Source: an uncultured Planctomycetales bacterium
GTDB lineage: Bacteria > Omnitrophota > Gorgyraeia > Gygaellales > Profunditerraquicolaceae
Length of the DNA stretch: 30,725 nt
NCBI GenBank assembly: GCA_964486875.1
Contig: CAZAPC010000002.1
Location: 1 to 30,725 of the forward strand
Direction: 5' to 3'
The notes under the pieces were generated by a model that made no database searches, was not told where the DNA came from, and saw nothing but the letters and a program-made list of their open reading frames with translations. Numbering within the stretch: position 1 is the stretch's first letter; each line of letters starts with the position of its first letter. Positions 4,967 to 25,871 of this stretch are shown piece after piece. The translations under genes were made by a program, and so were the position numbers.

Positions 4967-5686
4967 TCAAAGCAAATATTCTTTCTTTATCCTTTTGACG
5001 CTTCTACATATATTAGTTTTTAATTCCGGGCAGAACCTTTCTAATTCTTTTATTATTTTAGCCATCCGGGTACGGTTGGAAGTAACTGCATTAGGACAAC
5101 GACAGGTTTCGTAAGGCAAGTTTTCCTTGCACGCAAAAGAGGCAATCATACGTTCTTCGACATAAACAAACGGCCGGATAATAGTAATCTTGCCATTAAA
5201 TAACCGCTGTTTCGGCGACATCGCCGAGATTTCACCCTGAAAAAACATATTCAGCATGATTGTCTGGGCAATATCATCTTTGTGGTGTCCAAGCGCAAGC
5301 TTATCGCATTTAAGGCGGTTTGAAGCTTCAAAAAGCGCCTTTCTCCGGTTCCAAGCGCACCAAAAACAGTTTATTTCTTTCTTATCGGCCTTCTTTAATG
5401 CATCTATCTTCTCAATATGGTACTTAACCCCTATTTCCTTAAAGTACTTTACTAATTTCTTAGATACTGACTTCGGGTATCCTAAATCAATATGCACGGC
5501 GATAATATCATATTTAACCGGCACAAAACTCCTGCGGTCAGAGAGTACGCGTAAAAGCGCCATACTGTCTTTTCCCCCGGAAACCGCAACGGCAATTTTA
5601 TCCCCTTGGGCAATCATCTTATAATCCATAATTGCCCGGCCAGCGCGCTTGGAGATATAGAATTCCGTTCCTTTTAGTAAAGACAT
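4967..5686 (-). CDS. ttcA: tRNA 2-thiocytidine(32) synthetase TtcA family
   Basis: PP-loop SGGKDS, CFWC, GHHKDD, IIRP and a C-terminal CRC. Confidence 0.85.
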   Translation of the reverse strand: MSLLKGTEFYISKRAGRAIMDYKMIAQGDKIAVAVSGGKDSMALLRVLSDRRSFVPVKYDIIAVHIDLGYPKSVSKKLVKYFKEIGVKYHIEKIDALKKADKKEINCFWCAWNRRKALFEASNRLKCDKLALGHHKDDIAQTIMLNMFFQGEISAMSPKQRLFNGKITIIRPFVYVEERMIASFACKENLPYETCRCPNAVTSNRTRMAKIIKELERFCPELKTNICRSVKRIKKEYLL

Positions 5687-5729
5687 CTATTCAAAATAAC
5701 ATTTTCCTTATACAAAAGATTAAGAACTG

Positions 5730-5912
5730 ATAGACCTGTGGTTTTGATTAGGCGTGCATTAGAGAACTTTCGGCAAAAGTGCACAAGGAATTACGTCGAG
5801 CTTAAAGCCGAGCAACCTTGGCTTAAAAACGTAAGTCGCGAGCGAAAGCGAGACGTAAACCGCAGTGCACGGCGAAAGTTCTCAGCACGCATAAGCAAAA
5901 CTACAGGGCTAT
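5730..5912. repeat. Long nested-hairpin intergenic element, family H copy 1
   Basis: Pairing arms: CCTGTGGTTTTG/CAAAACTACAGG, GCGTGC/GCACGC, GAGAACTTTCG/CGAAAGTTCTC, GTGCAC/GTGCAC, TTACGTC/GACGTAA. Homologous to 25485-25649. Confidence 0.9.
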
Positions 5913-5917
5913 ATTCC

Positions 5918-7726
5918 CTATATCCTTCCTGACTCTGAAACTAAATCACGGATATCGCGGGTAACTTTATGCTTCAGCAAATCCTCAAGCGGTATAGGAA
6001 TCTTTACAGACCAGTTGGTTTTAGAGACAGTACCGGGAGTATTAATACGGTATTTATAGGGCTCGCTTTCTAAAACCTCACCCGGATAAAGCAGGTCGAA
6101 TATATTATTTATACAAATTAGAGAATTTGCATCCAAAACAAACTTTAAAACTGAACGGGAAATCTGGCTATCGCATCCCTCTCTCATATCACCCGGCAAT
6201 TCTAACAACTCCCAAAGCTTCTCCTTCTCTTTAAATGTATTCTCCCACATATCTATAAAGTCGAGAAAGTGTTCTTTTGGAATAGCCCCGTTTGGCGATA
6301 GGACTTTAAACAGCTTATCAATTGTATCTATCTCATTTCGCCAACGCAATCTTCCATACCTACTGCGTTTCGGGTCGAAAAGAATACCTTTCACCCTGTC
6401 AAAACCTATGCCGCGATGGTCGCTGCATTTGCGGATAAAAAGCGCCTCGTCAACTGTCCCTGCCTCATTCTCCCACCATGCCGCCCAATTAGTGGTGTCA
6501 TGAGTTGAGAGCATGGCAACAGACATAAACCGGTACTCTTTTTTATCCAAAAAGTCATGCCTGCAATTCCAATCCTTTACCCAACGCTGCACGTCATTCC
6601 CGGGGATATTCAATTCTTTTAAAGTATCGGTGCACGCTTGAGGAACAACGCCTAAATCCTCAGCGCAAAGAAACATATTACAGCTATCCTGCATTACCTT
6701 AAGAATTTTTCTGCCCTGCCCGAGCCAGAGATATTCATCTTTTGGGTCAAAAGAACCATTTAGGCCCTTATTCTCCAAAGGCTCATTATACGGGATACCC
6801 CAGATCCTGAAAATCCCGACTACATGGTCAACGCGTAAAATATCGTAGAAGTTTTGCGCATATTTTAATTTTTCTTTTAGGTATATAAACCCTTTACTCC
6901 CGATCTCCTTCCAGTTATATGTAGGCATGCCCCAGCGTTGCCCCAGAGCGCAATACATATCAGGAGGGGCTCCGGCGGCAAATTCCAACTTAAAGAATTC
7001 AGGATGCGCCCATACATCGCTTGAGTCTCTTGACACTAAAATCGGCAGATCCCCTTTTAATAATACGCCCTGCTTTGCAGCGTGCTTTTTAGCACGCTTA
7101 AACTGTTCATAGAGCTGCCACTGCGTCCATTCCTCAAAAGTAATTTTATCAATATTCCGGGCGCGGAACTCTTTTAGGCTTTTTTCATCCCTATCTCTAT
7201 GCTCTTTAGGCCAGGCATACCAGGAAAGCCCGTTGTGAGATACCTTAAGCACTTTAAATAATGCAAAATCAGGAAGCCAGTATTCATTTTCTCGCCTAAA
7301 ATTCAATAAGCCCTCCGGCGTGCCCTGCCCCTGCATCAAAAAAACTTCGCGCAATACGCGCATCTTCTCTTCCTTAACCGCATAATCACAATAAGCCCGG
7401 TTTAAAGGAAGATTCTTCTTTAGGTTTTCTATCTGCCTTCGGATAGATTTGTCTTTCGGAATAGGCAGGTCTGAAAGCGAAATATAAACTGGCTCCAGGG
7501 CAAAAGAGCTTAAAGCGTCATAAGGACAAAAGACAGGGCCCATTTCATTCATCGGTAAAAGCTGGAGGATAGAATTACCGGACTCTTTTACCCAGTCAAT
7601 AGCGAGTTTCAAGTCGCTGAAATCAGCGATGCCAAAGCTTTTTTCTGAATAAACAGAAAAGAGCGGGATTAATACTCCCGCTCTTTTCTGGCTAATAAGC
7701 CCTTTATTCTTAAATTCTTCGTCCAT
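5918..7726 (-). CDS. malQ: 4-alpha-glucanotransferase (amylomaltase, GH77)
   Basis: QLLP, SPY-like CPYDALSSFA, GDLPI, GAPPD, GQRWGMP, RVDH (nucleophile), AEDLG and THDT motifs. Confidence 0.95.
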   Translation of the reverse strand: MDEEFKNKGLISQKRAGVLIPLFSVYSEKSFGIADFSDLKLAIDWVKESGNSILQLLPMNEMGPVFCPYDALSSFALEPVYISLSDLPIPKDKSIRRQIENLKKNLPLNRAYCDYAVKEEKMRVLREVFLMQGQGTPEGLLNFRRENEYWLPDFALFKVLKVSHNGLSWYAWPKEHRDRDEKSLKEFRARNIDKITFEEWTQWQLYEQFKRAKKHAAKQGVLLKGDLPILVSRDSSDVWAHPEFFKLEFAAGAPPDMYCALGQRWGMPTYNWKEIGSKGFIYLKEKLKYAQNFYDILRVDHVVGIFRIWGIPYNEPLENKGLNGSFDPKDEYLWLGQGRKILKVMQDSCNMFLCAEDLGVVPQACTDTLKELNIPGNDVQRWVKDWNCRHDFLDKKEYRFMSVAMLSTHDTTNWAAWWENEAGTVDEALFIRKCSDHRGIGFDRVKGILFDPKRSRYGRLRWRNEIDTIDKLFKVLSPNGAIPKEHFLDFIDMWENTFKEKEKLWELLELPGDMREGCDSQISRSVLKFVLDANSLICINNIFDLLYPGEVLESEPYKYRINTPGTVSKTNWSVKIPIPLEDLLKHKVTRDIRDLVSESGRI

Positions 7727-11918: not shown

Positions 11919-11991
11919 GGGACGGTTCTTAACTTAATCTAAAAGTGTCCCTATTTTGGGAACAGTTCTGCTTTGGCTTAAGAACCATCCC
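11919..11991. repeat. 73-bp REP/REPIN-like palindromic element, family G copy A
   Basis: Terminal inverted repeat GGGACGGTTCTTAA/TTAAGAACCATCCC (1 mismatch). Shares 66/73 identity with the reverse complement of 17169-17241. Confidence 0.92.
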
Positions 11992-17168: not shown

Positions 17169-17241
17169 GGGATGGTTCTCAAACCAAAGCAAAACTGTCC
17201 CCTAAAAAGGGACACTTTTAGATTAAATTAAGAACCGTCCC
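17169..17241. repeat. 73-bp REP/REPIN-like palindromic element, family G copy B (inverted relative to copy A)
   Basis: GGGATGGTTCT...AGAACCGTCCC ends; inner stem AAAACTGTCCC/GGGACACTTTT. Confidence 0.92.
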
Positions 17242-25451: not shown

Positions 25452-25484
25452 TATTTCCTCTTACCGCATAAAATCAAACAATTA

Positions 25485-25649
25485 TTGATAACCTGTGGTT
25501 TAGGGACGTACATTAGAAATTTTTCGGCAAATGGGAGCAAGGAATTACGGCGAACGAAGCCCGACGGTTTGTATGGTCGGACGAGAGCGAGCCGTAAACC
25601 GAAGCTCCCGGCGAAAATTTCAGCACGGAGCGAAACCACAGGTTATCAA
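25485..25649. repeat. Long nested-hairpin intergenic element, family H copy 2
   Basis: Perfect 17-bp terminal inverted repeat TTGATAACCTGTGGTTT/AAACCACAGGTTATCAA. Inner arms GGGAGC/GCTCCC, TTACGGC/GCCGTAA and CCGAC/GTCGG. Confidence 0.9.
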
Positions 25650-25652
25650 ATC

Positions 25653-25677
25653 AATGAGCCTCCCGAGACTCGAACTC
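25653..25677 (-). repeat. 25-bp direct duplication of the tRNA-Lys 3' end (att-like)
   Basis: AATGAGCCTCCCGAGACTCGAACTC is identical at 25653-25677 and 25797-25821. Confidence 0.93.
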
Positions 25678-25796
25678 ATCGCTCCTAGCTTATGCTAGTC
25701 GCTCTTTAAGAGGGGGCAAGCCCCCTCTTAATGTTCTCCCCCAATCGCAGGGGAATCTTCCCCTGCACCCCTGGAGTTCTCGTTTTAACAATATTT
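25678..25796. mobile_element. 119-bp hairpin-rich mini-element or island remnant between att-like repeats
   Basis: Bounded by the 25-bp tRNA repeat; hairpins at 25685-25698, 25706-25731 and 25747-25766; no ORF. Confidence 0.5.
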
Positions 25797-25798
25797 AA

Positions 25799-25871
25799 TG
25801 AGCCTCCCGAGACTCGAACTCGGCACACGCGGCTTAAAAAGCCGCTGCTCTACCGGATGAGCTAGAGGCCC
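25799..25871 (-). tRNA. tRNA-Lys(TTT)
   Basis: Acceptor GGGCCTC/GAGGCTC, anticodon arm GCGGC-TTTTTAA-GCCGC and T-arm CCGAG-TTCGAGT-CTCGG; no encoded CCA. Confidence 0.96.

Follow-up and report, generated by a model that had tools for sequence, protein, structure and literature searches.

Two intergenic hairpins belong to an undescribed multicopy family of folded elements in one class of Candidatus Omnitrophota

The DNA analysed here, a stretch of 30,725 nucleotides (nt) that we call the window, is the beginning of contig CAZAPC010000002.1 (GenBank assembly GCA_964486875.1), deposited under the name of an uncultured Planctomycetales bacterium and placed by GTDB in the Omnitrophota. Homologues of its ribosome recycling factor gene bear the names Candidatus Omnitrophota or Omnitrophica. 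Protein and tRNA genes alike are encoded on the minus strand throughout the window. Among them stand two long intergenic hairpins, copies A and B of the element described below, whose positions are collected in Table 1 and which we read on the plus (+) strand. Copy A occupies the gap that separates the stop codon of a GH77 4-alpha-glucanotransferase gene from the start of a PP-loop/TilS-like gene (both named by Pfam) and is antisense to both, its 3′ end being 5 nt from the GH77 stop codon. Copy B lies within a cluster of tRNA-Gly, tRNA-Leu and tRNA-Lys genes, 33 nt away from tRNA-Leu and 2 nt away from a duplicated tRNA-Lys 3′ end. The two copies are 71% identical (BLAST E = 1.7e-11) and are homologous. 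Each is a single long imperfect hairpin, and 0 of 200 dinucleotide shuffles of either copy fold as well; the reverse strands also fold stably, as expected for near-palindromes. A first-pass annotation, made from the sequence alone, had listed a series of blocks shared by A and B, and all of them are present in identical order. The compensated stem differences that it claimed are found as well, namely GTGCAC/GTGCAC in A versus GGGAGC/GCTCCC in B, TTACGTC/GACGTAA versus TTACGGC/GCCGTAA, and GAACTTTCG/CGAAAGTTC versus GAAATTTTTCG/CGAAAATTTC.

A and B are members of an undescribed multicopy family of folded elements found in one class of Candidatus Omnitrophota. BLAST with copy A gave matches in 49 of 61 related genomes, often several in each. 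A first alignment of 20 full copies, in which 20 of the 31 pairs of the consensus fold show double changes, was the source of a covariance model (R1), and with this model 92 of the 151 genomes of the same Omnitrophota family gave a match, with at least 490 matches altogether and up to at least 17 per genome. The family is dispersed, as the first-pass annotation had proposed, and not confined to two copies. Its expectation of many copies genome-wide holds for the relatives; the genome of the window itself (G000 in our numbering, a 1.22-Mb draft, 90% complete) contains only A, B and one internally deleted remnant of 70 nt. In a phylum-wide sample 18 of 151 genomes matched, all from the same class and from eight families, seven of them other than its own. 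The 47 genomes of family f35 in this sample gave no match, nor did the other classes sampled.

A scan of 185,579 species genomes with an exact 24-nt pattern found at least 114 matching stretches. Among the 80 records listed, about 60 are titled Omnitrophota, including single-cell genomes, and most of the others are metagenome bins with Planctomycetes-type titles, of which five of nine tested match R1. Pattern hits in Paenibacillus, in Clostridium and in one Bacteroidales bin failed R1 and were set aside; another Bacteroidales-labelled bin passed. Viral contigs gave no match to the exact pattern. The inability of the first-pass annotation to assign the hairpins to a named family is borne out by Rfam 15. 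At the gathering score only three tRNAs were found in the window, and nothing overlapped A or B even at E ≤ 10 except a 15-bit chance hit to a snoRNA (E = 6); variants that have diverged in other families of the class matched no Rfam family either. A literature search on repeats or RNA motifs of Omnitrophota found nothing relevant.

Covariation, from which selection on a fold had been suggested at the outset, is strong in a larger set of 52 distinct copies from relatives. In these, 99.0% of 1,538 core pair cells are standard pairs, and double changes occur in 22 of the 31 pairs (194 cells), including many transversion swaps of the CG/GC and AU/UA type; one-sided intermediates are rare (16 cells). 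None of 500 shuffles reached the observed values for pairing or double changes, and slid controls were 23-48% paired. The asymmetric loops are conserved: the unpaired blocks (ATTA/A, the CGGCA-AAAG bulge, AA/GYA and tandem GA) are near-invariant across copies, so that the conservation of unpaired parts noted for A and B extends to the larger alignment and the loss of loop conservation that would have spoken against a selected fold did not appear.

The fold is also specific for one strand. R1 gives the + strand 127-155 bits and the reverse strand at most 31 bits. Folded as RNA, 104 copies are on average 8.6 kcal/mol more stable from the + strand than from the complement (Wilcoxon p = 7.5e-18), and purines make up 75% of the unpaired bases of the + strand. 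Counts of G•U versus A•C were 47 versus 18 in the outer stem P1 (p = 4e-4), 22 versus 11 in the core and 15 versus 4 in the first set; the first two counts were restricted to outer-stem and core pairs since a count over whole arms is confounded by the conserved loops. The model score, the stability, the purine-rich loops and the G•U excess together make the + strand the one whose single-stranded fold matters, and these data do not decide between an RNA and a DNA form. The + strand fold is under selection.

Members of the family are ~165-260 nt long and share a common plan. The outer stem P1 (10-20 base pairs, bp) is free in sequence with its pairing kept. It reads CCTGTGGTTT.../...AAACYACAGG in this genus, ATTTTAGGGTTTTTGCT/AGCAAAACCCTAAAAT in most other genera and TTTTGCGAAGGG.../...CCCTCGCAAAA in a third group, and its freedom is illustrated by the variants CCTGTGGTTT, ATTTTAGGGTTTT and TTTTGCGAAGGG. 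In most copies P1 is followed by a symmetric GGA/GGA loop, which A and B do not have. Then come P2 with 5-6 GC-rich pairs, the ATTA/A loop, the 11-bp A/T stem P3 (GAAAATTTTCG/CGAAAATTTTC), a G•G mismatch with the A-rich bulge C-AAAA-G, which is a fixed insertion point, and the 6-bp stem P4. Beyond P4 lie an AA/GYA loop, GG/CC, an AW/A loop, the stem P6 with TTAC(G)/(C)GTAA and one or two tandem G•A/A•G motifs, after which the apex is variable. In copy A the 5′ arm of the core is GCGTGC-ATTA-GAGAACTTTCG-GCAAAAG-GTGCAC-AA-GG-AA-TTACGTC-GA and the 3′ arm, after the apex, is GA-GACGTAA-A-CC-GCA-GTGCAC-GG-CGAAAGTTC-TCA-GCACGC; the outer stem that flanks this core is paired and variable in sequence.

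In many copies the AAAA of the bulge is replaced by a hairpin of 9-60 nt, which converts the rod into a three-way junction. The ortholog of B in genome G008 carries an additional branch hairpin of ~50 nt at this bulge, 7 more copies of the first 20-copy alignment have 9-13 added nt there, and inserts at the bulge are also present in copies fitted to the model later. The apex differs freely across the family, as it does between A and B. A GNRA apex accounts for 11 of 165 predicted hairpin loops and is no hallmark of the element. In other families of the class, diverged variants (L136, L137, L138, L140) possess a further conserved module at the apex, GGAACTGACCGAG-[hairpin]-GAGGGAATTCC, also written GGAACUGACCGAG...GAGGGAAUUCC. 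This module has the loose look of a hammerhead or C/D-box core and has no Rfam match.

Table 1. Positions of the hairpins and other features in the window
Feature	Position	Strand	Remarks
PP-loop/TilS-like gene	4967-5686	minus	start faces copy A
tilS-like/malQ gap	5687-5917		site A
Copy A	5730-5912	+	183-nt hairpin; covariance model 154.6 bits (+) versus 31 bits (reverse); minimum free energy −84.1 kcal/mol, z = −10.2
Conserved core of copy A	5752-5888	+	part common to the whole family, from alignments of family copies
GH77 4-alpha-glucanotransferase gene	5918-7726	minus	stop codon faces copy A
Palindrome	11919-11991		73 bp
Palindrome	17169-17241		73 bp
Copy B	25485-25649	+	165-nt hairpin with a perfect 17-bp outer stem; covariance model 127 bits at 25484-25647; minimum free energy −69.1 kcal/mol, z = −7.9
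Insertion point in copy B	25533-25534	+	CGGCA^AATG bulge; from comparison with the ortholog and family alignments
tRNA-Lys insert, repeats included	25652-25822		att-like
Repeat of the tRNA-Lys end	25652-25675		
End of tRNA-Lys	25799-25822	minus	last 23-25 nt of the gene

Copies are gained and lost at single intergenic sites between closely related species. Comparison of orthologous sites, one of the checks suggested in the first-pass annotation, turned up empty sites for both A and B. At site A the gap measures only 12-43 nt, and is thus empty, in five species of the genus (G001, G003, G004, G006, G008). Site B is filled in G000, G002 and G008. Alignment shows it empty in G003, G004, G006 and G010, and the spacing of matches shows the same for G001 and G007. 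The three species with B are scattered over a four-protein tree of the genus, in which G008 is nested with the empty G003 and G004, so that at least three gains or losses are required. Both A and B are insertion polymorphisms among species of the genus. The B orthologs of G008 and G002 are 90% and 84% identical, respectively, to copy B. Four DNA runs from lake water or freshwater contained site A in the filled form only; the exact empty allele was not seen in them, the sole 396-nt skip coming from a relative at 85% likeness. Additional contigs in the lake runs match the core only, from position 5752 on, and are other copies belonging to co-resident relatives.

Genome G094 carries five copies on five contigs that are 91-98% identical, a similarity that points to what was probably a recent burst. 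These copies (L096-L100) differ mostly by A/G exchanges in unpaired purines, the bulge being GAAG, AGAG, AAAG or GGAG and the loop GGAA, GGGG or GGGA, and their apex occurs in two mosaic versions. At the other end of the life of a copy, remnants of 70-117 nt originate by deletion of the hairpin interior. The one in the genome of the window (contig C48:2860-2929, locus L037:1501-1570) has kept its outer stem, P2 and the ATTA loop, has lost the interior at the self-complementary GAAAGCTTTC, and is closest to a full copy in G010. The gap that holds A is itself an insertion hot spot. G010 (L069) and G002 (L075) hold different inserts there, ~190-240 nt long and unrelated to A, which are related to each other and have CCTGTCTT... 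and GCTCGTCCC... in common.

The surroundings were surveyed for 104 copies. Of these, 49 have both flanking genes in antisense and 27 in sense orientation relative to the element; convergent and divergent flanking genes were found 3 and 6 times, respectively. In the antisense class the median distance between the 3′ end of the element and the convergent stop codon is 18 nt and the 5′ flank has a median of 128 nt; for the sense class the corresponding medians are 55 nt (3′) and 109 nt (5′). Copies occur in tiny gene-to-gene gaps in both orientations, and at three loci the 3′ end of the element directly adjoins that of a tRNA gene. Two copies lie close together in four cases, and each time they are arranged head-to-head, with 19-83 nt between the opposed 5′ ends (L011:1197-1583, L128:4010-4438, L129:5105-5503, L186:1201-1599); tail-to-tail or tandem close pairs were not seen. 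No protein family recurs in the flanks apart from a few syntenic sites, one of which, upstream of a thymidylate-kinase-like gene, carries a copy in constant orientation in three genera. A conserved flank motif was likewise not found, other repeat families next to ~10% of copies excepted. A positioned sigma-70 promoter upstream on the + strand is not indicated, as the best scores equal those of a mirror control (p = 0.61), and the copies have no terminator tail. A −35/−10 pair in the conserved loops of the reverse strand (TTGCGC-17-TCTAAT) was considered and rejected because the second position of the −10 is an invariant C. An estimate of replication-strand bias from GC skew is confounded by the coding strand, which itself has a skew of +0.145.

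We think, with a probability of roughly 0.5, that the element is a structure-dependent non-coding intergenic repeat of the ERIC/REPIN kind that is able to multiply and whose + strand fold is selected. It would multiply as a non-coding passenger in a copy-and-paste manner, its propagation or retention depending on a putative host factor that acts in trans. Such a factor might read the conserved purine-rich loops on the single-stranded + strand, presented either by an extruded or replicative DNA hairpin or by a transcript. Once inserted, a copy might simply be tolerated, or it could be useful as a stable hairpin beside gene ends.

A number of observations weigh against this proposal. Y1_Tnp genes of the IS200/RAYT type are present in 125 of the 151 family genomes, with 1-8 matches per listed genome, and they show no association with the element (78 genomes with both, 14 with the element only, 47 with Y1 only and 12 with neither; odds ratio ~1.4). 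The 14 genomes without Y1 include G119 with at least 16 copies and G091 with 13. Ten Y1 loci were examined, and neither the element nor words shared with it adjoin the gene at any of them. G119, which is 93% complete, gave no match to any of six families (Y1_Tnp, TnpB, RVT_1, IS110, rve, DDE_Tnp_1), negatives that have to be read knowing that metagenome-assembled genomes under-assemble repeats and tend to lose repeated genes. No consistent direct repeat suggestive of a target-site duplication borders the copies of G094, of G072 or of site B, though divergence limits the sensitivity of this comparison. Conserved terminal repeats were not seen either, and the termini are in fact the least conserved part of the element, the opposite of a transposon end. 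In the commoner antisense layout the + strand is not the mRNA strand and, if genes are co-oriented with replication, it would not be the lagging-strand template. Finally, the element is better conserved than seems to be expected of a selfish relic. Orthologous B copies are 83-90% identical at a distance at which the fourfold sites of two flanking genes have only 36-47% identity, that is, saturation; copies from different genera have a median identity of 81%, against 83-91% within a genome. In G072, 12 copies could be aligned; the eight that were compared pairwise are 81-91% identical, and their stems are complementary by eye. Judged from these identities, the family looks more like a functional gene family or the product of a recent spread between species. 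Conservation of this kind may come from purifying selection on resident copies or from turnover out of a shared constrained pool, and in either case the sequence and the fold are functionally constrained.

The Y1 load is unusually high for genomes of 1-2 Mb and consists mostly of open reading frames of 160-250 amino acids, often several in a genome; that of the window has one at G000:C38:83-427. Other candidate enzymes and partners were sought in five high-copy genomes. TnpB, RVT_1 and rve were each found in one of the five, RVT_1 not adjacent to the element, and IS110 and DDE_Tnp_1 in none. CsrA (PF02599), considered because of the GGA motifs, and L7Ae (PF01248), considered because of the tandem G•A pairs, were also found in none of them. 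Several known classes can be set aside on this basis. For a MITE of the DDE type, conserved terminal inverted repeats and a target duplication were not seen, and a search for a parent insertion sequence that covered IS110, rve and DDE_Tnp_1 in the five genomes identified none. An IS200/IS605 derivative (PATE) or an omega-RNA of TnpB does not fit a single long hairpin that has no subterminal hairpins at distinct ends, with TnpB in one genome of five. An RNA borne by a retroelement (retron, group II intron, DGR) is rejected on the RVT_1 result, and a CsrB/RsmZ-like or K-turn RNA on the results for CsrA and L7Ae. A transposase between the arms, or split arms with a coding insert, was not seen.

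The observed conservation could also be that of independently expressed structured RNAs. These non-coding RNAs (ncRNAs), the other option offered in the first-pass annotation, would be produced from the + strand of many gene copies that duplicate and move, and act in trans with a conserved Omnitrophota protein. We regard this as possible, at odds clearly short of even. Purine-rich internal loops, tandem sheared G•A pairs, the recurrent outer-stem U•G wobble and some GNRA loops, all on one strand only, are what one would look for in such an RNA, as are the hairpin of variable length added at one fixed junction and the apical module conserved in other families of the class. The ~81% identity across genera and the persistence of B next to saturated neutral sites fit it too, and so do the wider gap before the 5′ end of the element than after its 3′ end and the fact that neighbouring genes do not dictate orientation. 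However, promoter scores no better than the mirror control, the lack of a conserved 5′ flank motif and of a terminator tail are hard to reconcile with independent expression, copy B has just 33 nt before a tRNA gene upstream on the + strand, and the head-to-head pairs, with just 19-41 nt between the copies, have no space for two promoters. The element is also dispensable, since 59 of the 151 family genomes have no match, including three of this genus that are 90-96% complete, and since its distribution among sister species is patchy; CsrA or L7Ae as the partner was not found in the five high-copy genomes. A variant in which the RNA gene is itself mobile is more tentative still: a structured + strand RNA used throughout the class might dock a host protein through its loops, tandem G•A pairs and three-way junction while its genes colonise the gaps between other genes.

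Two further explanations seem less probable. Cis-acting roles that benefit neighbouring genes have been proposed for REP and ERIC elements, and a hairpin selected in place within an mRNA or tRNA precursor, where it might protect the 3′ end, be processed by RNase III or E, or insulate one cistron from the next, would agree with the presence of copies in transcribed gaps, most commonly a median 18 nt past a stop codon, with the three loci directly after tRNA 3′ ends, with a hairpin that is very stable from either strand, and with the thymidylate-kinase-like site occupied in three genera in the same orientation. We nevertheless consider it unlikely. In 49 of the 76 co-directional cases the transcript contains the reverse complement, which does not fit the model, has pyrimidine-rich loops and is less stable by 8.6 kcal/mol, and a plain stabilizer has no need of invariant asymmetric loops; moreover, the neighbouring genes are unrelated and sister species do without the element at the same site. 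Improbable for other reasons is a REPIN/REP- or IS200/IS605-type substrate that one subfamily of Y1 (HUH) enzymes would mobilize as single-stranded DNA, the mobile element that the first-pass annotation had in mind. The wide distribution of Y1_Tnp/RAYT-like genes, a recognition that is strand-specific and dependent on the fold, the lack of a visible target duplication, as expected of HUH enzymes, and the four Y1 genes of G094, the genome with the recent burst, could all be cited in its favour. But the presence of Y1 does not track the element, the two genomes with at least 16 and 13 copies do without Y1, and the transposase gene flanked by element ends that the same annotation had suggested looking for was not found at the ten Y1 loci. 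A GTAG or CGTC head is absent, the middle of the hairpin is conserved and not its foot, and most co-directional contexts would place the + strand on the leading-strand template.

The closest parallel to a passenger repeat of this sort is ERIC/IRU, imperfect palindromes of ~127 bp from Enterobacteria and Vibrio. Like the present element, they are non-coding and intergenic, reach tens of copies, lie in either orientation in transcribed gaps, vary in presence among relatives while being conserved across genera, and occur in size variants created by insertion at a fixed site and by internal deletion. To our knowledge, no transposase has been assigned to ERIC/IRU. The resemblance is one of kind, judged by the description of ERIC; the present element differs in its host phylum, Omnitrophota, in its length of 165-260 nt, in its richer set of invariant asymmetric loops, in its strong strand signature and in its variable termini. 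In Correia/NEMIS, BOX, RUP and MITEs of the DDE type the terminal inverted repeats are conserved, target sites are duplicated and a parent insertion sequence can be identified. All of these are, like the present element, small non-autonomous repeats that insert near gene ends and form RNA hairpins when co-transcribed, but inverted-repeat ends, target duplication and a parent insertion sequence were not seen here. With REP, BIME and REPIN sequences (PMC3116915, PMC2817692, PMC3733652) the element shares extragenic palindromic hairpins, long vertical persistence, inverted pairs and hosts with Y1/RAYT-like genes. REPs are 20-40 nt long with a GTAG or CGTC head, which is missing here. REPINs have conserved ends and a free middle, in contrast to a conserved middle and free ends in our case, for which neither association with nor adjacency to RAYT genes was found. 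By analogy, the element would work like ERIC/IRU, BOX or REPIN but is a member of none of them.

Omnitrophota are uncultured bacteria, for the most part ultra-small, whose genes are packed very tightly into genomes of 1-2 Mb. Many of them nevertheless afford at least 10 copies of an element of ~170 nt. Its sequence and fold are kept as strictly as those of a functional RNA, yet copies come and go between sister species and no transposase could be tied to it. This combination suggests an unrecognized mode of moving structured DNA or RNA, or an unrecognized RNA-protein system in Omnitrophota. The model and the alignment would allow annotators to mask or name hundreds of loci and provide a target for metatranscriptomics.

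Several smaller observations concern what lies next to the hairpins. Folding copies together with their flanks gives no information on target duplication, since the minimum-energy structure reaches too far into the flanking sequence. Beside copy B, the last 23-25 nt of tRNA-Lys are repeated, with 123 hairpin-rich nt between the two repeats. This att-like insert is independent of the hairpin: it occurs with B in G000 and G002 and without B in G004, G006 and G010, and it is absent from G003 and from G008, which has B. Other repeats adjoin the hairpin at L021, L038, L041, L043, L044, L046, L052, L058, L060 and L063, with the words GAGCGAGAAAAT..CAGATTCATTT, TTAGCGGGTGGCTTGGACTGG / GGCAGGACCCGCTAA and GGGACAGTCCC, and the GGGACAGTCCC repeat resembles the two 73-bp palindromes of the window.

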